A DNA stretch of 14,634 nucleotides from a candidate division WOR-3 bacterium (lineage in GTDB: Bacteria; Hydrothermota; Hydrothermia; JBDRYB01): assembly GCA_049969615.1 (NCBI GenBank), contig JBMFOM010000047.1, forward strand, positions 1-14,634, read 5' to 3'. The notes below the pieces were generated by a model that did not search any database, was not told the DNA's origin, and saw nothing but the letters and a program-made list of their open reading frames with translations. A program made the position numbers and the translations under genes. This document shows positions 1 through 12,580 of this stretch, piece after piece. Numbering within the stretch: the first letter of the stretch is position 1; every line of letters starts with the position of its first letter.

Positions 1-153
1 ATTCCAAGAAACCAAACCTTGATTTTATGCGGATCTCAGAACATGGGGGTAGCTAGAAATGGGGTTTTGGTGTCAAAGTTGAGTTTAAGCATTGATCCTG
101 CACAGGAAGTAAGTTATGGAGAATTGCTCCGGCTTCGTGCAGTGCGGTTGAGT

Positions 154-825
154 CTATGTTCGTGTCCCCGCGTTCCGCCAGACCGCGAGCGCGCCCCCGG
201 TCGCTATTAGCGCTATGCCTGGCAAATAGGCTTCCCAAATAAACCTGGTGGGAACGAAGCCCCTGATGGCATCGGCCCCACCGGGCAGGAGCCTGAACCC
301 GTCAAAGGTAAAAGATACTAGACACGCTAGGGCCCCAACCGCGGCCAGGATGATCTCAGGGGGTCTAATCATTGTTTGTTGGCCCTGTCCCGCCAGGAGC
401 AAGAGCGTCCCTGAGACTACCGAGAGAACGAGCGCGATCAATGCCGGAGCTACCCACGGGCCGAACCAGGGAACCGGTATCAGAAAGAGCACATCCCAGT
501 CAAGCCAGGACTGGGGCCACCCCAAGAGCACCTTTAGCCAGAGATAATAGAAGATGTCCCACAGGCCAAAGGCAAACAGGAACGAGAGAGAGCGCCTCAT
601 GTGTGTCTCCCCCGAAAGAAAACCCACAGCCCCAAGCATGACGATAGTCGCGATCTCTCGTCCAACCTCAATGGCCGCGACAAACGGGTCAGCGAGCTTC
701 ATGGGGAAAGAGAAGCCCTCAGGGTAATAGAGCCTTCTCAGATAGACCACAACAGCGGCTTCAAGGTATGCCATTGAAACCGCAAAGGCCCCCAGGCCTA
801 CGAGTCCAGATACTCTCTTTGCCAT
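154..825 (-). CDS. Polytopic membrane protein of unknown function
   Basis: 223 aa with about 6 hydrophobic segments and conserved-looking motifs (AYLEAAVVVYLR, EVGREIATIVML, WDIFYYLWL, WDVLFLIPVPW). Start overlaps the 3' end of the radical SAM gene by 28 nt. Confidence 0.85.
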   Translation of the reverse strand: MAKRVSGLVGLGAFAVSMAYLEAAVVVYLRRLYYPEGFSFPMKLADPFVAAIEVGREIATIVMLGAVGFLSGETHMRRSLSFLFAFGLWDIFYYLWLKVLLGWPQSWLDWDVLFLIPVPWFGPWVAPALIALVLSVVSGTLLLLAGQGQQTMIRPPEIILAAVGALACLVSFTFDGFRLLPGGADAIRGFVPTRFIWEAYLPGIALIATGGALAVWRNAGTRT

Positions 826-2276
826 AGGGGTTCAGTGAGCTCAAGGAACCTCTTGCCGTATTCCTCCATGAACGCGGCGTGCTCGGGTTTTGCCATGAGA
901 TCCTGCGCCCCGCTGTCAGAGGGCCTTGCGCTGTGAATTTCAACGAGCCTTTTCATAACCCGGAAGTGGTCCCTGATAAGGCAGGGCGCGAGCCAGTTCC
1001 CGTGGTCGCGAGGCTCGGTTTTCCCATAACCATAAGCGTTGTGCCAGCGCCTGATGGCCTTGAATATGGGGGAATCATAAGCGTCGTTTATCGTTCCGCC
1101 CTTCGCGTATATTTCCCTCAGGTTCGCACCCGCGTAGGGCACGAACACGCATGGGTAAACATCTCCGTTCCAATCTATGTATAGGTATCCCGTGTGTCTG
1201 CCCCCTGAGATGCAACCGGCTGAGACAGTGCCCTGGTTCCAGAAATCAAGAAGGAAGTATCCCCTTTTTCGGATTATTTCCCAGCCCCGCTTCCACATCC
1301 AGAGCCTTTCCTCAGGTGAAGGCATGAGCCGTGGGTCTATTTCCCTACCTATGGGCATATACTGGAACACCCATCCATAGGTCGCGCCCTGGCGCCGGAA
1401 GAACTCATTCAGAAACTCGTCTGAGAGGAGGAGCCGATAATTCCGGCTTGTCGCTGTAAGGGATATGCCAAATGGGACCCCCCTCTCTCTGAGCTCGGCC
1501 ATTGCAGATAGTATCCTTTGGTATGTTCCTTTGCCCCTCCTGCTGTCCGTCTCTTCCTCAAAACCCTCAAGCGATATAGCCGGCGTTAGGTTCCCCATTT
1601 CCGCGAGCCGTTTAGCCGCGTCAGCGTCTATCAGGGTCCCGTTGGTATATACCATAAAGAAGCAGTTGGGGTTTTCCTCAACTACATTGAATAACCTTGT
1701 ATTCCCGTCCCTCCACAGGAATGGCTCTCCCCCTGAGATGACGAAAAACCTGACTCCCCAAAGCTCCTTTGCCTCCCTGATTATTCTGCGGAACTCTTCC
1801 GCGCTAAGCTTTTCGGGGTTCGCGCCAGAGGCCGCGTAGCAATCCGGGCACCTCAGGTTGCACGCCTTAGCTGGGCTTATGACCAGGAAGCCCGGCGGCC
1901 CTTTCTCGCCCTTTTTCCTGAAGGCCTCGCTTATCTCGCCTCGTTCGGCCCAGTTCTTCACCATCTCACCCAAAAAGGTATTGACCAACCTTTCAGCAAA
2001 ATGTGGCGAGAGCCTTCCCTGATCCATTGCTCTGTCTAGAGATTTCAGCAGTGCCCACGCGGCCCACGCCACATCCCTCTTGACCCCGCGTGGTCTCGTG
2101 CCAGCTACTATGGCATCGTAATTTCCCCTGTTTATCTGGGTTTTGATGTATATGAGGAGGGCCTTTCTCACAGCCCTGCTTTTGAACGCAGGAGCCGATA
2201 GCCTGGCTATTATATCCCGGCCGCTGACCCCTCTGAGGACCATCCCCATGTTGGGAACAAGCGTTTTAACTTCCAT
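798..2276 (-). CDS. Radical SAM enzyme with C-terminal SPASM/twitch-type auxiliary Fe-S domain
   Basis: CNLRCPDC (CxxxCxxC), SGGEP, YTNGTL and ISLEG core motifs; C-terminal GCISGGR...GDVYPCVF...APC. AAGGAGG SD 6 nt before the ATG. Confidence 0.93.
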   Translation of the reverse strand: MEVKTLVPNMGMVLRGVSGRDIIARLSAPAFKSRAVRKALLIYIKTQINRGNYDAIVAGTRPRGVKRDVAWAAWALLKSLDRAMDQGRLSPHFAERLVNTFLGEMVKNWAERGEISEAFRKKGEKGPPGFLVISPAKACNLRCPDCYAASGANPEKLSAEEFRRIIREAKELWGVRFFVISGGEPFLWRDGNTRLFNVVEENPNCFFMVYTNGTLIDADAAKRLAEMGNLTPAISLEGFEEETDSRRGKGTYQRILSAMAELRERGVPFGISLTATSRNYRLLLSDEFLNEFFRRQGATYGWVFQYMPIGREIDPRLMPSPEERLWMWKRGWEIIRKRGYFLLDFWNQGTVSAGCISGGRHTGYLYIDWNGDVYPCVFVPYAGANLREIYAKGGTINDAYDSPIFKAIRRWHNAYGYGKTEPRDHGNWLAPCLIRDHFRVMKRLVEIHSARPSDSGAQDLMAKPEHAAFMEEYGKRFLELTEPLWQREYLDS

Positions 2277-2601
2277 TTTGCGCCTCCTTTTTTACCATTC
2301 TCCTGAGCCTCGCCATTTCGCTGGTCAGCCTGCCCAGCTCGCTGGCCATTTCCTGGAGCCTGGCGCTATCCTTGGACGCTAGATCAGCCATCCGCCTGGC
2401 CAGGCGCTCGGTCTCGTTGGCTATTGCCCTCAGTCGGACCAGATGAGTCATGTCAATCCCGGAGGCCTTGTCCACAACTTTGATCCCTATGCCCCTGCCG
2501 ATCATGCCCATGACCTGGCCCAGGGTAACGAAGGCCCTTGAGACCGTGTCATAGAGCTTTCTGTTGGAATACCTGTGAATCAGCCTCACCTTTTTACGCA
2601 T
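2266..2601 (-). CDS. PhaR-like protein (PHB/PHA accumulation regulator N-terminal DNA-binding domain) with C-terminal coiled coil
   Basis: MRKKVRLIHRYSNRKLYDTVSRAFVTL...IKVVDKASGIDMT matches the PhaR N-terminal pattern IK(K/R)YxNR(R/K)LYDT...(Y/F)(I/V)TL...VVD..(S/T)G.D.T. Start reassigned from 2790 to ATG 2601 (111 aa), where the homology begins. Stop overlaps the radical SAM start. Confidence 0.85.
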   Translation of the reverse strand: MRKKVRLIHRYSNRKLYDTVSRAFVTLGQVMGMIGRGIGIKVVDKASGIDMTHLVRLRAIANETERLARRMADLASKDSARLQEMASELGRLTSEMARLRRMVKKEAQNGS

Positions 2602-2609
2602 TGCGTAAA
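2593..2609. promoter_or_regulatory. Perfect palindrome TTTACGCA-T-TGCGTAAA over the start codon of the PhaR-like gene; candidate operator
   Basis: 8-bp arms at 2593-2600 and 2602-2609, centred on the first base of the ATG and touching the -10 box. The operator role is inferred. Confidence 0.6.
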
Positions 2610-2639
2610 TTATAAAGCTAGCGCGCTGGGCCGGTTCAA
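2609..2639 (-). promoter_or_regulatory. Sigma70-type promoter, probably giving a leaderless transcript
   Basis: Minus strand reads TTGAAC (2639-2634), 19 nt, TATAAT (2614-2609), 7 nt, ATG. No SD sequence; the spacer is longer than optimal. Confidence 0.65.
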
Positions 2640-2694
2640 GGCCGCGCGTTCGCCCACAAAAGGTCTTATCCAAATGGAAGGCCATAAGATTAGG

Positions 2695-2723
2695 GAGACC
2701 GCTGATAAAGTAGTAATAACCTA
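2695..2723 (+). repeat. Dispersed repeat family, copy 1 (left-end fragment)
   Basis: GAGACCGCTGATAAAGTAGTAATAACCTA is 28/29 identical to 14019-14047. Confidence 0.9.
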
Positions 2724-2926
2724 TGATCCTAGAATGCACGTGGCCATCATCATGAATCAGGAGGCTCAATTTTTGCTCCGAAATCACCAAGGCCTTGCTC
2801 CGACTCGGATAGGGTCAAGAGGGCACAGCCGGGTAGAGAATCACAAGCTCTGGGCAAACGGGGGCCGTGTGTCAGCTCTGTGTCAGAGAACACGGTATCA
2901 TTTAGGGTGGACAAAAGGAGGATAGC

Positions 2927-4363
2927 ATGTTGTTGATGACTTTTCTGCTTTCGGCGCCCGATGCGGGCTGTGAGAGGATAATTTCTCCGGGCCAGTATGT
3001 TCAGCTCGGTACCCCTTACCCTGTCAAAGCGAGGTTCAAGAACTACGGTGATGTGACCGTGTCCTTTCCCGTTTATTTCAGAATTGACACTGTCGGCGGG
3101 AATCTTTATTCTTCCTCATCAAGCGTGAGCGACCTCGTGCCCGGAGACACCCACACCATTGCCTTCTCGCCGAATTGGACGCCCCCCGTTTTCGGCACAT
3201 ACATCGCTTATGCCTGGTCTGATTTGGCCGGAGACAGCTACCATGGTGATGATACCTGTCTGATATACATCAAGTGTTATCACGATGCTCAGCCTCTGGA
3301 TGTTTTCTGGCCATACTATGAGAACTCGGTAGGCATCCCAATTCAGCCGGTCGTCAGGGTCAAGAACAGAGGCTCCTACACCGAGGGAATACCTCTGAAG
3401 CTTAACATATACGCGCCTGGCGGCAGTCTCGTCTACTCGGGGAACACCACAACCCCTTCTGTGACGCCGGATTCCCAAAGCACGGTTCAGTTGCCAACTC
3501 AGTGGACCCCCTCGGATACCGGGACCTACACGGCCGAGCTGATAACGACGCTCAACCAGGATTTTTATCCGGAGAACGACACATTCAGAGAGGATTTCAA
3601 GGTCACCTACGAGATCATATATGACCAGGGAATAGTGGATCAGTTCATGATCCCTTCCGCGGATTACTACAATAATAAGATGGCGGTCCGGTTCACTCCA
3701 ACCATAACCCCTCCTCTATACATAACCGATGGCAGGATCTTCCTGAACACATACGATTCCCTTGATTATGTGATGATCTGCCGGAGCTCCGGTAGTCTTC
3801 CGGATACCACAAATCCCCTTTTCATCACCTATAACCTCCACGGGGACAATTTCATAGGCAGCTGGGCCAGCTTCTCCGTAAGCCCGTCCTTATACCTCGG
3901 ATCAGCGCAGGATGTATGGATCGTTGCCCACTGGCGCCCAACTAGCCCCATGGCTCCCGCAGTGGGCTGTGATTTTGATGTTCCGGTGGACGGAAGGAGC
4001 TGGTATTTCCTTAGCTATACCGGTTGGGTGAACTACGGGTATGGCGACTGGATGATGAGGCTCACCCAGAGCAAGACCGTTGGGCTGGAAGAGAGCGCGA
4101 GCGATAAAATGTTATCCTTCGCCATAAACCCAAACCCGTGTCGCGGTCGCTCTGTGCTTTCCCTTTCCCTGCCTTTGGAGTCATGGGTTGACATAGACCT
4201 GTTCGGGGTTGACGGAAGGCACCTTGAAAACCTATTCTCCGGGAAGCTGGAACCTGGCTCTCACAGGATAACCCTTTTGCCAAACTCCAGTCCGGGAGTC
4301 TATTTCCTCAGAATAGGCATTGGGGATAGGTTTGTCACGAGGAAGCTAGTGATAACCCGTTAG
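2927..4363 (+). CDS. Secreted protein with two CARDB/Ig-like domains and a T9SS type A C-terminal sorting domain
   Basis: AGGAGG SD. Two internal repeats (V...KNxG...P...WTP...GTY...D.Y..(D/N)DT). C-terminus INPNPC...IDLFGVDGR...PGVYFLRI...TRKLVITR is typical of the Por/T9SS CTD. Confidence 0.88.
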   Translation: MLLMTFLLSAPDAGCERIISPGQYVQLGTPYPVKARFKNYGDVTVSFPVYFRIDTVGGNLYSSSSSVSDLVPGDTHTIAFSPNWTPPVFGTYIAYAWSDLAGDSYHGDDTCLIYIKCYHDAQPLDVFWPYYENSVGIPIQPVVRVKNRGSYTEGIPLKLNIYAPGGSLVYSGNTTTPSVTPDSQSTVQLPTQWTPSDTGTYTAELITTLNQDFYPENDTFREDFKVTYEIIYDQGIVDQFMIPSADYYNNKMAVRFTPTITPPLYITDGRIFLNTYDSLDYVMICRSSGSLPDTTNPLFITYNLHGDNFIGSWASFSVSPSLYLGSAQDVWIVAHWRPTSPMAPAVGCDFDVPVDGRSWYFLSYTGWVNYGYGDWMMRLTQSKTVGLEESASDKMLSFAINPNPCRGRSVLSLSLPLESWVDIDLFGVDGRHLENLFSGKLEPGSHRITLLPNSSPGVYFLRIGIGDRFVTRKLVITR

Positions 4364-5316
4364 GATTCAACCGGGACCTTTTTCAATAGCTCATCAACGA
4401 GGCCGTCAACGGTGATCCCGTCTGCTTCCGCATGGAAGTTGAGGATGACCCTGTGCCTCATTACATCATGCGCTATCTCTTTGATATGGAGGCTGGTTGG
4501 GACAGGGTCTCCCCTGAGCCAAGCAAGGGCTTTTGCGCCGAGAATCAACCACTGGCTTGCCCTCGGCCCTGCGCCCCAGAGCACATACTTCTTTACGATT
4601 TCCAGGGGTGATTCGCCAGGCCTGGTCGCCCTGGCGAGCCTCACCGCATATGCATAAACATGTGGTGGAACTGTCTTAGAGAAAACCTCTTCCCTCGCGG
4701 CTGTTATCTCCTCGCGGGAGATGACCGGCTGAGGCTCTGGTAGCGCGCCGGAGGTTGTCCTCTCAACTATCTCAAGCTCTTCCTTCTCATCCGGGTAGTT
4801 TAGGTTCAGCTGGAACGCGAACCTGTCCAACTGCGCCTCCGGTAAGGGATATGTCCCCTCCTGTTCTATTGGGTTCTGGGTCGCCAGGACGAAAAACGGC
4901 GGTTCAAGGCGATATGTCTTTCCGCCCGCAGTGACCGACAGCTCCTGCATTGCCTCCAGCAGGGCGGATTGGGTCTTTGGCGGGGTTCGGTTTATCTCAT
5001 CGGCCAGTATCACATTCGCGAAAACAGGACCCTTGTGAAACCTGAATATCTTTCGTCCCGTTTCCAGATCATCCTCCAGGATGTCCGTGCCTATAATGTC
5101 CGTTGGCATTAGGTCAGGGGTGAACTGTATCCTTGAGAAACTGAGACCCAGAGCCTTTGCCAGGGTCTTTACCATGAGGGTCTTGGCGAGGCCAGGGACC
5201 CCGACCAACAGCACATGTCCGCCAGCAAACATTGCCGCGGCAAGCTTTTCCAGGATGGACTCCTGGCCGACTATAACCCGCGAGACCTCAATCTTGAGTT
5301 TTTCGCCAGTGTTCAA
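4360..5316 (-). CDS. moxR: MoxR-family AAA+ ATPase
   Basis: Walker A GVPGLAKT, RIQFTPDLMPTDI, Walker B ILADEINR, ATQNPIEQEGTYPLPEAQLDRF, GAGPRA. TTG start; stop codon overlaps that of the convergent gene. Confidence 0.95.
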   Translation of the reverse strand: MNTGEKLKIEVSRVIVGQESILEKLAAAMFAGGHVLLVGVPGLAKTLMVKTLAKALGLSFSRIQFTPDLMPTDIIGTDILEDDLETGRKIFRFHKGPVFANVILADEINRTPPKTQSALLEAMQELSVTAGGKTYRLEPPFFVLATQNPIEQEGTYPLPEAQLDRFAFQLNLNYPDEKEELEIVERTTSGALPEPQPVISREEITAAREEVFSKTVPPHVYAYAVRLARATRPGESPLEIVKKYVLWGAGPRASQWLILGAKALAWLRGDPVPTSLHIKEIAHDVMRHRVILNFHAEADGITVDGLVDELLKKVPVES

Positions 5317-5438: not shown

Positions 5439-5858
5439 ATGCCGAAGGACAAACTCTTGGAACTTCTGAACCAGGCAGTAGCCAGAGAGCTCCAGGTTTC
5501 CATTCAATACATGTGGCAACATGTCAGGGCTTCTGGCTTCCAGTCCCCGCCTGTGGCTGATGCGCTCAAAAAAATCGCCATCACCGAGATGAAACACGCG
5601 GAGGCAATAGCGGAGCGCATGGACTATCTAGGCGGAGAAGCAACCACTAAGCCCGCTCCCATAACGGTTGGCACGACCCTAAAGGAGATGCTGGAGCTGG
5701 ACATCAAGGCAGAGGAAGAGGCAATAACCCTCTACAAGAAGATAATAGATGTCGCGGCAGAGGCAAAAGACACCACGACCCGTCGCCTCATGGAGGGCAT
5801 CCTTGAGGACGAGGAGGGCCACGACGACCTCTTCCGCAAACTGATTGAGGGTCTCTAG
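5439..5858 (+). CDS. Ferritin-like di-iron protein (bacterioferritin-like)
   Basis: Four-helix di-iron ligand pattern E(LQVSIQY)...EMKH...E(AITLY)...EEGH; 139 aa; strong SD. Confidence 0.9.
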   Translation: MPKDKLLELLNQAVARELQVSIQYMWQHVRASGFQSPPVADALKKIAITEMKHAEAIAERMDYLGGEATTKPAPITVGTTLKEMLELDIKAEEEAITLYKKIIDVAAEAKDTTTRRLMEGILEDEEGHDDLFRKLIEGL

Positions 5859-5874
5859 AGTGAGGTGCTTTTCC

Positions 5875-6378
5875 ATGAAGAAGATGACCAGGACCAACCT
5901 TGAGACTGCGTTTAGTGGCGAATCCCAGGCCCACATGAAATACCTGATATTCGCGGAGGCCGCGGAACGGGAGAACTTACCGAATATAGCCAGACTCTTC
6001 AGGGCAATAGCCTATGCCGAACAGGTCCACGCGACCAACCACTTCAGGAACCTGGGCGGAATAGGCGAAACAAGTGAGAACCTGGCAAAGGCCGCTGAGG
6101 GTGAGAACTTTGAAGTCCAGGAGATGTATCCTGCGTATGACGCGGTAGCTAAACTCCAGGGCGAGCAGGGCGCGATTAGGAGCATCCACTATGCCATTGA
6201 GGCCGAGAAGATACACGAGGCCATGTACGAGAAGGCCAGACAGGCAGTCCTCGCCGGCAAAGACCCCCAGATAGGCGATCTGTTCATCTGTCCCGTGTGC
6301 GGCTATACCCACGAAGGAACCCCGCTAGAGCGCTGTCCAGTTTGTAACGCGCCCAGCTCAAGCTTCAAAAAATTCTAG
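5875..6378 (+). CDS. rbr: Rubrerythrin
   Basis: AFSGESQAHMKY, AEQVHA, GENFE...MYP, AEKIH plus a C-terminal rubredoxin-like CPVCG...CPVC. Start set to ATG 5875 (MKKMT) after a GAGGT SD. Confidence 0.95.
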   Translation: MKKMTRTNLETAFSGESQAHMKYLIFAEAAERENLPNIARLFRAIAYAEQVHATNHFRNLGGIGETSENLAKAAEGENFEVQEMYPAYDAVAKLQGEQGAIRSIHYAIEAEKIHEAMYEKARQAVLAGKDPQIGDLFICPVCGYTHEGTPLERCPVCNAPSSSFKKF

Positions 6379-6391
6379 GAGAAAACAACAC

Positions 6392-6751
6392 ATGCGCTTA
6401 TCAGAAACCGTAAACCCGCCCGAATACGAGGGCAAAGAGAAGCATGTCCCCCAGATACACGTTCCGGACAGGGTCAAGGCCGGGGAGTGGTTTGAGGTGA
6501 CTGTCATAGTTGGGGAGGAGATCCCTCACCCCAACACCCCTGAGCATCACATATCCTGGATAAGGGTATTCTACAAGGAGGACAGCCCCAGGCCTGTATA
6601 TTCGGTTGCTTATTGTGATTTCACGCCTGTTTATGGGGATTCCCGTTTCTCATTCAGGATGAAGGCCGATAAGTCCGGCCACATCCTCGCTCTGGAGCAC
6701 TGCAACATCCACGGACTCTGGGATAACTCCAAGCGCCTTGAGGTTGAGTGA
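6392..6751 (+). CDS. sor: Superoxide reductase, 1Fe class (neelaredoxin)
   Basis: EKHVP, HPNTPEHHISWI and CNIHGLW iron-site motifs; no N-terminal desulforedoxin domain. Confidence 0.95.
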   Translation: MRLSETVNPPEYEGKEKHVPQIHVPDRVKAGEWFEVTVIVGEEIPHPNTPEHHISWIRVFYKEDSPRPVYSVAYCDFTPVYGDSRFSFRMKADKSGHILALEHCNIHGLWDNSKRLEVE

Positions 6752-6752
6752 G

Positions 6753-7103
6753 ATGCCGGATAAGAAGGTTGCCTTGTTTCTCTTTGCTGAGAAGGGGGAC
6801 ACCAACCGGGTCATGCATGGCCTGCTCTATGCCTGGGATCTCAAGGACAAGGGCTTTGACACGGTTCTCGTCCTTGAGGGACTGGCCGTGAAACTGCCCA
6901 TTGACTTTTCAAAACCCGACCACCCGATGCACGAGTGGTGGGAGAAGGTGAGGGGCATGGCGGTTGCCTGCACGGGTTGCGCCAGCGCAATGGGCGTGAT
7001 CCAGGAGATCAGGGCCCTCGGGATTCCCCTCATGGGCAACGAGATGACCCACATAAGCCCATCGGGCTATCTTTCTGATGGCTACCAGGTGATCATGATG
7101 TAG
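6753..7103 (+). CDS. DsrE/DsrF-like family protein
   Basis: About 116 aa; HGLLYAWDL...LVLEGLAVK, ACTGCA and C-terminal GYQVIMM fit the DsrE-like fold. Start set to ATG 6753, just after the sor stop. Confidence 0.8.
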   Translation: MPDKKVALFLFAEKGDTNRVMHGLLYAWDLKDKGFDTVLVLEGLAVKLPIDFSKPDHPMHEWWEKVRGMAVACTGCASAMGVIQEIRALGIPLMGNEMTHISPSGYLSDGYQVIMM

Positions 7104-8229: not shown

Positions 8230-9123
8230 TCATTCCCCGTGCGTCATCCTGTGGCGCCTGACCAGGTCCTCCCAGCTGTGCTTTATGAAGCTCTTAACAT
8301 ACTCCAGCCTTTCTGGCTCTGCGAAAAGCGGCCTGAACCTTCCCTGTAGTTTGAAGTATTCCTCGGGCGGGGCCTCCTCCTCGGGCCAATAGTTTATGGT
8401 ATATCTCTCGCCGTCCTCAACCTCGTATAGCGGAAAAATCCTCGTTTGCACCGCAAGGCGCATGGCCTTGATGGAGAGCTCTGACGGCATCTTCCAGCCC
8501 GGAGGGCACGCGGAAAAGATGTGAATGAACCTCGTCCCCTTGATGTCCCTCGCCTTCGCGAACTTCCGGAACATGTCCTCCGGGAAAGCAGGGGTCGCTG
8601 TTGCCGCATAGGGAATCCTATGCGCGGCCATGATGGCCATCATGTTCTTCTTTGGCCTGTCCTTTGGCCTCTCCTCTGGGGTTGTGGTTGTCCACGCTCC
8701 AAAAGGCGTTGAGGATGAACGCTGGATGCCTGTATTCATGTATGCCTCGTTGTCATACATGGTGTAGATTATGTCGTCGTTTCGCTCGGCGACCCCTGAG
8801 AGGGCCTGTATACCTATGTCCGCGGTCCCGCCGTCCCCGCCCCATGCCATTACCCTGGTTTCCTTGCCCTTTAGCTCTTTCGCAGCCCGGATGGAAGAAG
8901 CAACTATAGCGGCTGTTTCAAACGCGGTGTGAAACACCGGTACCTTGAGCAGGTGGGTTGGCCACGCACCATCAATTATTGACCAGCAACAAGCCGGTAG
9001 CACGATGACCGTGTCGGGGCCAAGGGCCTTGAGTGCTATCCGCATAGATAGAGAGGCCCCGCATCCCTGGCAGGCCAAGTTCCCAGGATGCAAGTGTTCA
9101 TCGGTGGGTATCTGCCACTTCAT
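8230..9123 (-). CDS. vorB: 2-oxoacid:ferredoxin oxidoreductase beta (TPP-binding) subunit, 2-ketoisovalerate (VOR)-like
   Basis: ACQGCG, PACCWSII, FHTAFET, GDGGTADIG...YDNEAYMNTGIQRS and CPPGW motifs. The PACC and HTAFET variants recall Thermococcales VorB rather than PorB; substrate is inferred. Confidence 0.88.
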   Translation of the reverse strand: MKWQIPTDEHLHPGNLACQGCGASLSMRIALKALGPDTVIVLPACCWSIIDGAWPTHLLKVPVFHTAFETAAIVASSIRAAKELKGKETRVMAWGGDGGTADIGIQALSGVAERNDDIIYTMYDNEAYMNTGIQRSSSTPFGAWTTTTPEERPKDRPKKNMMAIMAAHRIPYAATATPAFPEDMFRKFAKARDIKGTRFIHIFSACPPGWKMPSELSIKAMRLAVQTRIFPLYEVEDGERYTINYWPEEEAPPEEYFKLQGRFRPLFAEPERLEYVKSFIKHSWEDLVRRHRMTHGE

Positions 9124-10352
9124 CGGGAAACCTCCTTTGGCTGGGGTTGGAGGGGCCTTATCTCGTATTTTGTGTGGCCAGTACCTATGGGAAAACCCTT
9201 TAGTCCCGCGTAGAGGATGTCCTCTGGTTTCTCCCTCACCTTCATGTCCTCGTAGACCGAGACTATATCCTCAACCCGGACATCCCTTCCGCCTATGCCT
9301 ATTATGTAGCCATATATATCTGGACTTTTCGTTTCATGATATAGCGCGGAGCGAATCTCCTCAGAGAAGACTCCGGAATGGCCTGGACTCATATTCCTGT
9401 CCAGAACTGCAACCTTGTTCCGGCCAGACAGTGCCTCGCGAACCTCTTTGAACGGGAATGGCCTGAACGCGACCATCTTCAGGAGACCAACCTTCTCGCC
9501 TTTGTCTCTGAGCGTTTTCACCGCGAGCCGGGCATTGGAGGTCATGGATCCCATTGAGACTATGACATAATCCGCGTCATCCATCATGAACTCTTCGGTC
9601 ACGGTGTAGGGTTTCGGCCCTATGGTCTCGCCAAATTCCTGTCCGGCCTCCCTGAGGAGCTCCAAGGACCTCTCCATGTTTTTGTATATCTTGTAGCGTA
9701 TCTCGTAGTAGTGTTCCCTCGCGATGAGGCCTCCCCAGGCCCTAGGGTCAGCCGGATCCAGGTCATATATTGGCTTGTATGGGGGCAGGTAAGCGTCAAC
9801 CCTGTCCTGGTCGTGGACAAGAAGAGGCTCAAAGGTGTGTGATAGGATGAAGGCGTCTATTGCCACCATACCGGGCAAATAGACCTGTTCGCAAACCTTG
9901 TAGAGCCATATGATGAAGTCCTGGGATTCCTGGACGCTCTCAGCGAAGAGCATGAGCCAACCCACATCCCTCTGGGAGAGGAAATCCGTGTGCTCAGACC
10001 ATATTGACCAACCCGGCGCCATTGCCCTGGTAACATTTGAGAGAACAACGGGCGTTCTCGCGCCAGCGGCCCAGTGGAGCATCTCGTGCATGAGGGCGAG
10101 ACCCTGCGCGCTGGTTGCGGTGTAGGCCCGCGCGCCAGCGGCGGACGCTCCTATACACGCGGCCATCGCGGAGTGCTCGGATTCAACATTGACAAACCTG
10201 GCCTTGAGCCTGCCAGAGGCCACCAGCTCGGAGAGGAGCTCAACTATGGTGGTCTGAGGTGTTATGGGGTATGCAGATATGACCTCTGCTCGCGACAACA
10301 TCGCACCGTAGCTCGCGGCGTGGTTTCCCGTCAAAAGCTTGCGTTCGGGCAT
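9120..10352 (-). CDS. vorA: 2-oxoacid:ferredoxin oxidoreductase alpha subunit, VOR-like
   Basis: AYPITPQT, VESEHSAMAACIGAS, TATSAQGLALMHEMLHWAAGAR, FRPFP, GIGGRD. Start reassigned to ATG 10352 (MPERKLLTGN), just after the upstream stop; ATGA overlap with beta. Confidence 0.9.
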   Translation of the reverse strand: MPERKLLTGNHAASYGAMLSRAEVISAYPITPQTTIVELLSELVASGRLKARFVNVESEHSAMAACIGASAAGARAYTATSAQGLALMHEMLHWAAGARTPVVLSNVTRAMAPGWSIWSEHTDFLSQRDVGWLMLFAESVQESQDFIIWLYKVCEQVYLPGMVAIDAFILSHTFEPLLVHDQDRVDAYLPPYKPIYDLDPADPRAWGGLIAREHYYEIRYKIYKNMERSLELLREAGQEFGETIGPKPYTVTEEFMMDDADYVIVSMGSMTSNARLAVKTLRDKGEKVGLLKMVAFRPFPFKEVREALSGRNKVAVLDRNMSPGHSGVFSEEIRSALYHETKSPDIYGYIIGIGGRDVRVEDIVSVYEDMKVREKPEDILYAGLKGFPIGTGHTKYEIRPLQPQPKEVSR

Positions 10353-10353
10353 T

Positions 10354-12018
10354 TCAAAACTCCTTTTCCCGGATAAATGAAATAACATTTCCCGGGCACT
10401 CGTTGGGGCAGATGCCGCATCCCTTGCAGTATTCGTAGTCAAAGATTGGTCCCGGCCCCCACTTTATAGCGTAATCCGGACAGAAAACAAAGCATGTTCC
10501 GCACTGGTTGCAATATCCGCAGGAAAAGCACCTGTCAATCTCGGCTACGGCCTCGGCTTCCCTTATGGTTGAGGATTCCTCGGAGAATCCCTTCCTTATT
10601 CGCTCCGCGGCCGGCAGGGTTGGGCTTTCGTTTCTGGGGTTCTTCGGGAAGTAAGCGGGATTCGTGTTCTCCGGCTGAACAATAGAGTCCGGGCATTCCT
10701 TTGCCCAATCTGGCATCGGGAATTCCACACCCAGAGTGCTGTTTATTGCAAAAGCGGCCCTCCTTCCCCAAGCTATTGCCTCAACCACTGTGGCTGGCCC
10801 TGTAGCGAGGTCTCCGCCCACGAACACGGCCGGATCAGGTGTTGAACCGCACTTCTCAACCGAGAGCCAGCCATCCTCGCCCTTCATGGAATCCGGAAAC
10901 AGGGACAGGTCTGCTATCTCGCCGACCGCCTTGAAGATCGCGTCAAAATCCTCTGAGTATGTCTCTCCGGTTGGCTCTGGCCTAGCCCTCCCGGACGCGT
11001 CGGGTCTTCCGAGCCTCATCCTCTCCACGATAACCTCAAGGCCGTTACCCTTCTTCCTGACAGCTTTTGGCAAGCTGAGGATACGGAACTCCACGCCTTC
11101 CTCTTTGGCCTTCTCGTATTCTTCCCTGATCGCGGGCATCTCCGCCTCTGTTCTCCTGTAGAGTATTGTGACCTCAGCGCCCAGCCTTCTCAGGACCCTG
11201 GCAACATCCATGGCGGTGTTGCCGCCACCAACGACCGCGCACCTCTTTCCTGGAATCGGTCTCTCGCCCTTAAGGACCCTCACCAGAAATGGCAGTCCCT
11301 CGCTTACCAGTTCCTCGCCCTCGGTTCCCATCTCACGCTCAAGCCACGCGCCTGTTCCTACATAGATAGCGTCAAAGCCCTTCTTGAGATCGTCAAGAGA
11401 GAAGTCCTTTCCCAGCTCCTCACCAGTCCTAAACTCAATTCCGAGCTCCATTAGCTTCTTTATCTCCTGATCAACTATGAGGTTGGGAAGGCGGTATTCC
11501 GGTATGCCGTATCTGAGGAGTCCGCCAGCCTCTTTTTCCCTCTCAAAGACAATGACCCTATGTCCAGACCTTCGGAGGTAGTAAGCCGCGGAAAGCCCTG
11601 ATGGCCCTGACCCAACTACTGCCACACTTTTGCCGGTTTCCCTGGCTGGTTTCGGGTGAGAAAGGTCAGCGACGGCATCCCCAAGGTAACGCTCTACTGA
11701 TCTCACAGAGACAGCGCTGTCATATGCCTTGCGATTACAAGCCTCCTCGCAGAAGTGAGGGCAAACCCTTCCGGTTATCCTGGGGAACGGGTTTCTCAGG
11801 GCGAATATGTCCCTCGCCTCCTCAAACCTGCCCTCGGATAGCGCGTGGAAATACCTAGGAATGAACACACCCGCTGGGCACTCGCGCGAGCACGGCGAGG
11901 CCTTGTTCTCCAAGAGCGGCTTCATGTTTCGCCATTCGCCGGTCTTCACTATACCCAGCGTTGGCACGATGGAAACGGGCATCTCCGGATAGTTGTCTAC
12001 ATGAGATAGCTCAGGCAT
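10354..12018 (-). CDS. Fusion of the oxidoreductase delta (2x[4Fe-4S]) subunit with a GltD/DsrL-like FAD/NAD(P)H oxidoreductase
   Basis: N-terminal KTGEWRNMKP (delta motif); PCSRECP, GRVCPHFCEEAC, GSGPSG, YGIPEYRLP, GGGNTAMD, YRR, GGD (GltD-like); C-terminal CNQCGTCFVFCPD...DYEYCKGCGICPNECP (delta ferredoxin). Confidence 0.9.
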   Translation of the reverse strand: MPELSHVDNYPEMPVSIVPTLGIVKTGEWRNMKPLLENKASPCSRECPAGVFIPRYFHALSEGRFEEARDIFALRNPFPRITGRVCPHFCEEACNRKAYDSAVSVRSVERYLGDAVADLSHPKPARETGKSVAVVGSGPSGLSAAYYLRRSGHRVIVFEREKEAGGLLRYGIPEYRLPNLIVDQEIKKLMELGIEFRTGEELGKDFSLDDLKKGFDAIYVGTGAWLEREMGTEGEELVSEGLPFLVRVLKGERPIPGKRCAVVGGGNTAMDVARVLRRLGAEVTILYRRTEAEMPAIREEYEKAKEEGVEFRILSLPKAVRKKGNGLEVIVERMRLGRPDASGRARPEPTGETYSEDFDAIFKAVGEIADLSLFPDSMKGEDGWLSVEKCGSTPDPAVFVGGDLATGPATVVEAIAWGRRAAFAINSTLGVEFPMPDWAKECPDSIVQPENTNPAYFPKNPRNESPTLPAAERIRKGFSEESSTIREAEAVAEIDRCFSCGYCNQCGTCFVFCPDYAIKWGPGPIFDYEYCKGCGICPNECPGNVISFIREKEF

Positions 12019-12580
12019 TCTTTCCTCCTGTTTTGACGTTTTCGTAAGCTTCGGTTGCCGCGGCTTTGTTTTCCTCGGTCTTGGTCGGAGCCTCTTCCTC
12101 TATTGCCGTGAGCAATGACTTCAGGTTAACGAGGCCCGTGACCCGAACGAACGCGCCGAGCACGGTTGTGTTGACGACCGGTTGGGTTCTTGAACCTATG
12201 CCGTGTTTGACCGCTATATCAGATGCGTTTACCGTGGCCACCCGGTAGTCCAGGGGGACAGCCAACGAATCCGGCGGGTCGGGCGTGTTGACCACAATCC
12301 ATCCGCCTTTCTTCAAGCCAGCGATAACATTTGTTGATAGCAGGAGGGTGGGATCAAGGATTATGAGGTGGTCTGGCTCAAGTATGTCCTGACGAACGAA
12401 AAACTCATCACCCGGCTCAGCGACCCTGGTGAACGCAACAACGGGTGCGCCGCGGCGCTCAACACCATACTGGGGATAAGCCTGAACATAATGGCCCTCA
12501 ATGAAAGCGGCCTCCGCCAGAACCTTTGACGCTACCACAGCTCCCTGGCCCCCCCTTCCGTGGATCCTTATTTCAATCAT
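12011..12580 (-). CDS. 2-oxoacid:ferredoxin oxidoreductase gamma subunit
   Basis: MIEIRIHGRGGQGAV, YGVERRGAPV and VNTTVLGA motifs; overlaps the next gene by 8 nt. Confidence 0.95.
   Translation of the reverse strand: MIEIRIHGRGGQGAVVASKVLAEAAFIEGHYVQAYPQYGVERRGAPVVAFTRVAEPGDEFFVRQDILEPDHLIILDPTLLLSTNVIAGLKKGGWIVVNTPDPPDSLAVPLDYRVATVNASDIAVKHGIGSRTQPVVNTTVLGAFVRVTGLVNLKSLLTAIEEEAPTKTEENKAAATEAYENVKTGGKNA

Follow-up and report, generated by a model that had tools for sequence, protein, structure and literature searches.

Why should a PhaR-like regulator, a relative of repressors that respond to polyhydroxybutyrate (PHB), stand at the head of an operon for a radical S-adenosylmethionine (SAM) enzyme and a membrane protein, in an organism in which no polyhydroxyalkanoate (PHA) synthase is found? 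The question is raised by positions 154 to 2,639 of a 14,634-nucleotide stretch of DNA (the window) from a candidate division WOR-3 bacterium (GenBank assembly GCA_049969615.1, contig JBMFOM010000047.1). The window corresponds to contig C47 of genome G000, which measures 2.06 Mb and has a completeness of 98%. A sequence-only reading had suggested that a PhaR fold was co-opted here to control the radical modification of a hydrophobic substrate with the help of a membrane partner, and had proposed a link to Mss, the bacterial membrane-spanning lipid synthase. We compared the locus with 41 genomes of the same class, G000 included, and with 142 loci of the enzyme from other genomes and metagenomes (80 + 62; 112 of them with at least 700 nt of upstream DNA). 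On balance, we lean towards the view that the locus is a locally autoregulated three-gene operon for the radical modification of membrane lipid tails.

The three genes lie on the reverse strand. The regulator gene (2266..2601) codes for a protein of 111 amino acids (aa) with a PHB_acc_N DNA-binding domain at residues 7-65 followed by a charged helical tail, and its ATG start is conserved in relatives. The enzyme gene (798..2276; 492 aa) specifies a Radical_SAM domain that is preceded by a helical extension and followed by a twitch-like part. The third gene (154..825; 223 aa), which stands 153 nt from the contig end, codes for a six-helix membrane protein that belongs to a large unnamed family. 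Regulator and enzyme genes overlap by 11 nt and enzyme and membrane protein genes by 28 nt; with the −35 and −10 elements described below, the picture of three overlapping same-strand genes behind one promoter is confirmed. The identical trio was found, in identical order, in G001 and G002, which are genomes of the genus, and on a metagenome contig, L156, a 76% identical relative; the regulator is 69-71% identical in all three. The flanks vary: purC/purS lie upstream in G002 where the window carries a gene for a protein with a T9SS sorting tail. Because the same three genes recur in the same order in G001, G002 and L156, the trio is more than a chance arrangement. In G002, a gene for a 177-aa protein without family begins 9 nt after the trio and is followed by one for a 348-aa radical SAM/SPASM protein resembling GeoRSP (L110:9941-11496).

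A −35-like hexamer, TTGAAC (2634..2639, reverse strand), read from the sequence, is separated by a 19-nt spacer from a TATAAT −10 box (2609..2614, reverse strand). G001, G002 and L156 have TTGATC at the corresponding −35 position, and TATAAT is invariant in all four aligned sequences despite their diverged flanks. A sigma-70 consensus scan of positions 1-3000, which admits spacers of 16-18 nt only, found no promoter; it missed this one because the spacer is 19 nt. The A of the regulator ATG stands 7 nt past the last base of TATAAT and, because so short an interval separates the −10 box from the start codon, the transcript is probably leaderless or nearly so.

The region of the transcription start and the regulator ATG is covered by a perfect 17-bp palindrome, TTTACGCA-A-TGCGTAAA (2593..2609). 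It fits exactly the motif W2N2YGCRNYGCRN2W2, which, in the part of the report drawn on here, was set as the PhaR site of Sinorhizobium meliloti by regulon analysis, electrophoretic mobility shift assays and mutation (bioRxiv 10.1101/2025.02.17.638283). When the window is aligned with G001, G002 and L156, the block TTATAATTTACGC[A/G]ATGCGTAAAA is conserved in 23 of 24 columns in all four sequences, and the DNA further upstream has diverged. The 2.06-Mb genome holds nine sites that fit the published motif, one of them on the regulator's own start, and a stricter 15-mer core of the palindrome has a single occurrence even when up to two mismatches are allowed. The palindrome is a probable operator of the PhaR-like protein, judged by this match and by its conservation. 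Similar sites stand before PhaR-like genes elsewhere. The exact motif is found at the promoter of the PhaR-like gene of a Zixibacteria locus (L076); related palindromes immediately follow TTGACA-N17-TATAAT upstream of enzyme-linked PhaR-like genes at L077 and L171, and a related half-site lies upstream of another at L066. In two Latescibacteria clusters (L065 and L069), which read membrane protein, GT4, PhaR-like protein, enzyme and serine palmitoyltransferase, the exact motif is located 75-126 nt upstream of the first gene. An exact PhaR-type site also precedes, by 53-69 nt, a PhaR-like gene of the class that is linked to an MMPL transporter gene (L116).

Like PhaR/AniA, the PHB-responsive repressor, the regulator has the PHB_acc_N DNA-binding domain (PF07879; E 7.6e-16, 58.4 bits, cut-off 25), and its own promoter carries an exact match to the PhaR site, to which it is predicted to bind. 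Unlike PhaR/AniA, it is only 111 aa long and scores 46.2 bits against the PhaR equivalog model TIGR01848, under the cut-off of 109.45; moreover, its predicted target is a radical SAM operon and not phasin or depolymerase genes. It is the sole PHB_acc_N gene of the genome. The sequence-only reading had noted that the window lacks phaC, and the same holds more widely: no match to PF07167 (PhaC_N) or TIGR01836 (class III synthase) was detected across the 98%-complete genome. Together with the PhaR-type operator on the regulator's own promoter and with the PhaR-like genes that stand upstream of the same enzyme clade elsewhere (see below), this bears out the idea of a PhaR fold tied to a non-PHA operon. 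Within the class, 13 of the 41 genomes have a PHB_acc_N gene. Other such proteins of the class, encoded at L115 (in G039), L116 (G022), L118 (G010), L119 (G016), L123 (G023) and L124 (G013), are 187-218 aa long. At L115 and L116 the gene is placed between a gene for an outer-membrane-like protein and one for an MMPL transporter with a sterol-sensing domain; at L123 and L124 it adjoins an MFS transporter gene.

The 492-aa protein belongs to the radical SAM superfamily (PF04055; E 6.5e-27, 95.2 bits, cut-off 29.5), and its CxxxCxxC cluster motif reads CNLRCPDC (residues 139-146). It falls outside the SPASM subfamily proper: the score against PF13186 is 20.1 bits, below the cut-off of 21.5, and the seven-Cys motif is missing. 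As described before from the sequence, there is a long N-terminal extension, which measures about 125-135 aa before the cluster motif at residue 139, and three Cys in the auxiliary-cluster region. These three (C355, C376 and C432) are invariant, as are the cluster residues C139, C143 and C146, in 24 aligned family members; the window enzyme has one further Cys, C205, and in many relatives from the class the number of Cys behind the core is exactly three. The enzyme is twitch-like, with probably one auxiliary cluster. In an AlphaFold2 model (pLDDT 86.9) the extension is helical from about residue 30 to 121, with helices at 34-50, 63-85, 91-110 and 113-121 in front of the barrel. Among solved folds the closest are SkfB (Z 23.9, 279 residues aligned), anSME (22.9) and SuiB (22.6), over 279-312 residues. 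Unlike these three, with which it shares 17-20% identity, the window enzyme has three and not seven conserved auxiliary Cys, a different N-terminal domain and a different gene context.

The family is large. A word-index search returned 5,838 relatives among 8,000 scored candidates, the best 120 of which are 45-79% identical to the enzyme over nearly the full length, and a genome scan found 286. The nearest named homologues are from candidate division WOR-3, and the best 80 of the 286 come from Anaerolineae, Armatimonadota, Acidobacteriota, Aminicenantes, Latescibacteria, Zixibacteria, TA06, Stahlbacteria, Sumerlaeota, Thermodesulfobacteriota, Gemmatimonadota and actinomycete metagenome-assembled genomes (MAGs); one of these 80 is from a cultured organism, Pelolinea submarina. 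At a locus of a Gemmatimonadota MAG (L077:966-3201) the match to the enzyme is split (1110-1373 and 1840-3168) over two overlapping open reading frames (ORFs), which may reflect a frameshift, an insertion or an assembly error.

How is this enzyme related to Mss? In the portion of the Mss report used here, the enzyme is represented by WP_129545148.1 of Thermoanaerobacter ethanolicus (446 aa) and by Tmari_0825/TM0824 of Thermotoga maritima (482 aa); six blocks are given (CNxxCxGC; GGEP; N/S/R/G; W-then-P/Q/R; D-F with VEPC; P/C/V/A), homologues are called at E <= 1e-50 and at least 30% identity to WP_129545148.1, and they are reported from the FCB group, Zixibacteria, Latescibacteria, Armatimonadetes and Chloroflexi (PMC13159169). 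Dataset S4 of a study of Gms, the synthase of glycerol monoalkyl glycerol tetraethers, lists Latescibacteria 4484_181 as 'Gms yes, Mss yes, Tes no' (PMC11214058). In this genome (G041) we find three genes: one is Gms-like (L140), one is of the window type (L147) and one, of 475 aa, bears VEPC (L145). L147 lies between a PhaR-like gene and a serine palmitoyltransferase gene. L145 is followed by a gene for a B12-binding radical SAM protein; it overlaps the start of that gene, whose product resembles BchE, HpnJ and HpnR (L145:1156-2583; also L144:859-2319, in G041), and the two could represent a coupling enzyme paired with a methylase.

The window enzyme and L145 are 39% identical (E 3e-91), and profiles of the two clades align in hhalign with 40% identity and an E-value of 4.8e-99; the alignment spans 383 columns and runs from residue 87 to the C terminus. 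Motifs were counted in 120 members of each clade. [VI]EPC is present in at least 95 of 120 members of the L145 clade and in none of the 120 of the window clade, whose hairpin reads VYPC or VMPC where Mss has VEPC. Conversely, the ISGGEP of the window enzyme matches block II of Mss, and GGEP is found in 117/120 members of the window clade vs 18/120 of the VEPC clade. Most window-clade members have CNxxCxGC; W..Q..PI.R occurs in 99 and DFW in 119 of the 120, and both are also found in the VEPC clade. The Latescibacteria members of the window clade are 482 aa long, the same as T. maritima Mss. A quick maximum-likelihood tree, built from 30 window-type hits and 25 VEPC-type hits (of 120 each) together with Gms-like proteins, sets the two clades apart from the Gms-like proteins with 99% support; the VEPC-type sequences are monophyletic (98%), and those of the window type make up the rest of the joint group (69%). 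On this tree the window clade is sister to, or encloses, the VEPC clade, which fits the published description of Mss. From these comparisons we place the enzyme in a superfamily related to Mss, within which its clade is separate. The proposed Mss link is supported in part, through a 39-40% identical sister clade with an Mss-type VEPC, a motif that the window clade lacks.

The likeness to Mss extends to a comparable size, to an origin in anaerobes, to the CNxxC.GC-type motif, GGEP, W/Q/P/R block, D-F block and V.PC hairpin of the window clade, and to a range of phyla similar to that of the homologues named in the part of the Mss report cited above. Unlike here, neither a PhaR-type regulator nor this membrane protein is described beside mss in that part of the published work (PMC13159169). 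Gms is, in the portion of its report used here, homologous to AhbD but extended at the N terminus by 100 aa, which are modelled to form a lipid pocket, and bacterial gms genes cluster with tes or mss (PMC11214058). Like Gms as described there, the window enzyme falls in the SPASM/twitch group of radical SAM proteins and is extended at its N terminus by a helical part of about 100-130 aa. Unlike Gms, which is AhbD-like throughout, it matches the AhbD model TIGR04545 only in the core (residues 137-313, 68.9 bits) and so lacks the full-length AhbD likeness by which Gms is recognized; the Gms-like proteins lie outside the window clade in the tree, and the one compared is 26% identical to the window enzyme, in the core only. 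The Gms-like neighbours of window-type enzymes match TIGR04545 over their full length (215-280 bits); in TA06 and Stahlbacteria loci the E-value is 1e-63 and a 120-aa extension is present. With Tes/GDGT-MAS (PDB 7tol, 7tom) the enzyme shares the radical SAM fold and the proposed chemistry, C-C coupling of lipid tails. It is not a Tes, because the profile match to GDGT-MAS covers the core only (E 0.0074) and GDGT-MAS ranks 30th by fold (Z 17.6, 254 residues aligned). Set against the SPASM families, then, the enzyme is close to neither Tes nor Gms and is near the VEPC clade by sequence, whereas by fold its best matches are SkfB, anSME and SuiB. A search with PF06050, the marker of Ger/PlsA, was silent in the control, T. 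maritima, which has Ger.

The neighbourhoods of the enzyme across phyla suggest on what it acts. A PhaR-like gene adjoins it at 8 of the 142 loci (L065, L066, L069, L076, L077, L156, L171 and L180) and stands directly upstream in Latescibacteria (L065, L066), Zixibacteria (L076) and Gemmatimonadota (L077). Near the enzyme of the Latescibacteria loci are genes for a GT4 glycosyltransferase and a serine palmitoyltransferase (NF047600, E 1.3e-164), and a serine palmitoyltransferase-like neighbour is seen at 5/142 loci in all. Genes for LPG_synthase_TM and an alpha-oxoamine synthase lie near the enzyme at the Gemmatimonadota locus, MlaD near it in Zixibacteria L076, and a Gms-like gene at 7/142 loci, in TA06 and Stahlbacteria immediately upstream of the window-type enzyme. 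Within the class, a PEMT/ICMT-like methyltransferase gene is placed between the genes for enzyme and membrane protein in G011, and a CrtO-family acyltransferase gene is found near the pair in G027. Because of these lipid-gene neighbours in other phyla, and because the sister clade bears VEPC, a lipid substrate is likely for the enzyme. The hydrophobic substrate proposed earlier thereby gains ground; it may undergo C-C coupling or another C-H modification. Other recurrent neighbours are ApgM-like (14/142 loci) and ArsR (12/142); at L070, L078, L080 and others from TA06 and Stahlbacteria, the order is ArsR, Gms-like protein, window-type enzyme and cofactor-independent phosphoglycerate mutase (NF003160, 549.8 bits).

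The membrane protein matches no Pfam or NCBIfam family, and none of 31 members of its family has a Pfam family. An AlphaFold2 model (pLDDT 91.7) consists of six long helices. E22, Y28, R30, E53, R56, E57, T60, W89, D90, Y94 and D111 are invariant, and the polar ones lie within the modelled helices. Foldseek returned no match at E <= 0.001 and the best VIA-align score, Z 6.0, is at the noise level for helical bundles, so that no solved fold fits. At E <= 0.001 the family counts 1,996 representatives, almost all of them 200-260 aa long; four longer relatives contain no informative extra domain, and the neighbours in the ESM Atlas are unnamed. The 202-aa membrane protein of the Latescibacteria cluster was considered as a homologue and proved unrelated on comparison. 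The enzyme is present in 9 of the 41 class genomes, and the membrane protein in all nine. The two genes are adjacent in seven of these, in three arrangements: same order and strand (G000, G001 and G002), same strand with one gene between (G011), and divergent (G013, G023 and G027). At the 142 loci elsewhere, the membrane protein gene is a neighbour once, at L156. The trio therefore stands only in part as a conserved unit: the tie between regulator and enzyme reaches other phyla, but the membrane protein is a partner only inside the class.

From these elements a working model can be drawn. The PhaR-like protein would repress its own operon from the palindrome, and a hydrophobic ligand or surface would draw it off the DNA, as nascent PHB does with PhaR, leading to derepression. 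Enzyme and membrane protein would then be made together by translational coupling, as their overlapping genes suggest. The three conserved Cys would hold one auxiliary Fe-S cluster, the helical N-terminal domain may hold the lipid, and the enzyme would act on an acyl or alkyl tail, where hydrogen abstraction at an unactivated carbon would lead to a C-C bond, which could be a tail-to-tail coupling or a cross-link. Possibly, the membrane protein serves in this lineage as a membrane anchor for the soluble enzyme or passes the lipid to it.

Several observations weigh against a lipid-tail operon of this kind. In its degenerate form, the PhaR motif is no more frequent in the genome than a reversed control (9 sites each). 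Across the 142 loci, 134 have no PhaR-like neighbour and 141 no neighbouring membrane protein gene. The membrane protein is also encoded in eight class genomes where the enzyme was not found, where its neighbours resemble gatA, gatB or rpsT, judged by their first residues only; among five distant genomes with the enzyme, it is present, not adjacent, in two and was not found in three. The nearest folds of the enzyme are peptide and sulfatase maturases, ahead of the lipid enzyme GDGT-MAS. As for Mss, the window enzyme reads VYPC in place of the VEPC of block V, like a clade without any VEPC, and its CNLRCPDC has D at the G of CNxxCxGC. The presumed Mss-type clade, in turn, is mostly GGEV (81/120) and not the published GGEP, and confirmed Mss may for this reason fall in a third clade. 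The tie to Mss was drawn by description only, from published motif descriptions and a table of MAGs.

Other explanations have to be set beside these points. The enzyme could act on lipids without coupling their tails, by an intra-lipid cross-link, cyclization, hydroxylation or desaturation, and where a serine palmitoyltransferase adjoins, the substrate might be of the sphingolipid type; we entertain this tentatively. It would accord with the distinctness of the window clade from the VEPC clade, with the two window-type copies of some class genomes and with the Latescibacteria genome that holds both clades in different clusters, one with PhaR and serine palmitoyltransferase and the other with B12 radical SAM, an arrangement that suggests two different jobs. 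The window genome, however, has only this one member of the superfamily, and the 40% identity to the sister clade over 383 columns makes similar chemistry the simpler assumption. Nor is the sphingolipid link general, because the window genome scores under the cut-off of the serine palmitoyltransferase model (378 vs 640 bits). That the genes are merely packed together, with the PhaR-like protein regulating something else and the palindrome kept for another reason, such as being half coding, seems quite unlikely to us. Nine of the 17 bases of the palindrome are indeed the first three codons of the regulator, and the want of motif enrichment would be expected, but the non-coding half and TATAAT are equally invariant while the remaining upstream DNA diverges, the strict core is found nowhere else in the genome, and PhaR-like genes recur upstream of the enzyme clade in three other phyla.

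A different substrate altogether would be a peptide or protein, with the enzyme maturing a ribosomally synthesized and post-translationally modified peptide (RiPP) whose small precursor was overlooked, and with the membrane protein serving export or immunity. Such a role would fit the solved structures that are nearest in sequence and fold (SkfB, SuiB, CteB and anSME), and also the best NCBIfam rows, among them the mycofactocin and StsB maturases, which all score far below their cut-offs. We nevertheless regard it as improbable. Apart from the enzyme's own, no gene family is a neighbour at more than 13 of the 80 genome loci, where small ORFs were not systematically screened; the 42-52% identity that members keep over many phyla is unusual for RiPP enzymes; and the recurrent neighbours are lipid genes. 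The modelled N-terminal extension is all-helical and in this differs from the winged-helix leader-binding domains of RiPP enzymes. Maturation of a tetrapyrrole or another cofactor, in the manner of AhbD and NirJ and with the lipid neighbours coincidental, appears very improbable: the NirJ2, AhbD and NirJ models do match, at E 5e-22 to 8e-19, but these matches cover only the core (137-313) and reach 68-79 bits against cut-offs of at least 500, whereas true AhbD-like neighbours align over the full length at 215 bits.

The genome encodes further radical SAM proteins. One of them, a SPASM-like protein of 448 aa (contig C11, L128:735-2081) whose cluster motif lies at residue 33, was considered as the true Mss of the genome and rejected: it shows 22% identity and the W/Q/P/R block is absent. 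Contig C20 encodes a 479-aa HpnJ-like B12-binding protein (L127:789-2228; E 1.5e-65, under the cut-off). In the remainder of the window, a gene for a protein of 478 aa whose sorting tail is of T9SS type A (TIGR04183; 2927-4363, forward strand) is divergent from the operon and adjoins that of a MoxR-type AAA_3 ATPase (4360-5316, reverse strand). An oxidative-stress run typical of anaerobes follows (5439-7103, forward strand), encoding a ferritin-like protein, a rubrerythrin with a rubredoxin-like tail, a desulfoferrodoxin and a 121-aa protein without family. A 2-oxoacid:ferredoxin oxidoreductase cluster (8230-12580, reverse strand) comprises the genes for the gamma (POR), alpha (POR_N, PFOR_II) and beta (TPP) subunits. 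The first two are separated by a gene for a GltD-like flavoprotein of 554 aa, which also has Fer4_20 and, at its C terminus, a 4Fe-4S dicluster.

What would a radical modification of lipid tails under PhaR-type control mean beyond this genome? It is conceivable, if doubtful, that PHB_acc_N proteins act as general sensors of membrane-lipid state, and not of PHA, in candidate phyla without PHA, that PhaR-type operators stand before genes of lipid remodelling or export (this operon, the Latescibacteria cluster with GT4 and serine palmitoyltransferase, and MMPL exporters in sister families), and that the six-helix protein is a new intramembrane partner that presents the tails. The window clade would, on the same doubtful proposal, produce a lipid for which no enzyme has so far been assigned; a candidate is a bridged or membrane-spanning fatty acid or sphingoid lipid, akin to the orphan branched tetraethers of anoxic sediments. 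In the parts of the literature used here, branched tetraethers and related membrane-spanning lipids are described as widely used climate proxies whose anaerobic producers and enzymes are poorly known (PMC13159169, PMC13274423, PMC11214058). The locus marks a clade of very large size, clearly akin to Mss yet distinct from it, and ties this clade to lipid genes in several phyla; surveys that use a homology threshold probably lump it with Mss. It also offers a compact test system, with one regulator and a defined 17-bp putative operator, one enzyme and one membrane partner. Finally, a PHA-type regulator in organisms where no PHA synthase was found would widen what the PHB_acc_N domain is thought to sense.

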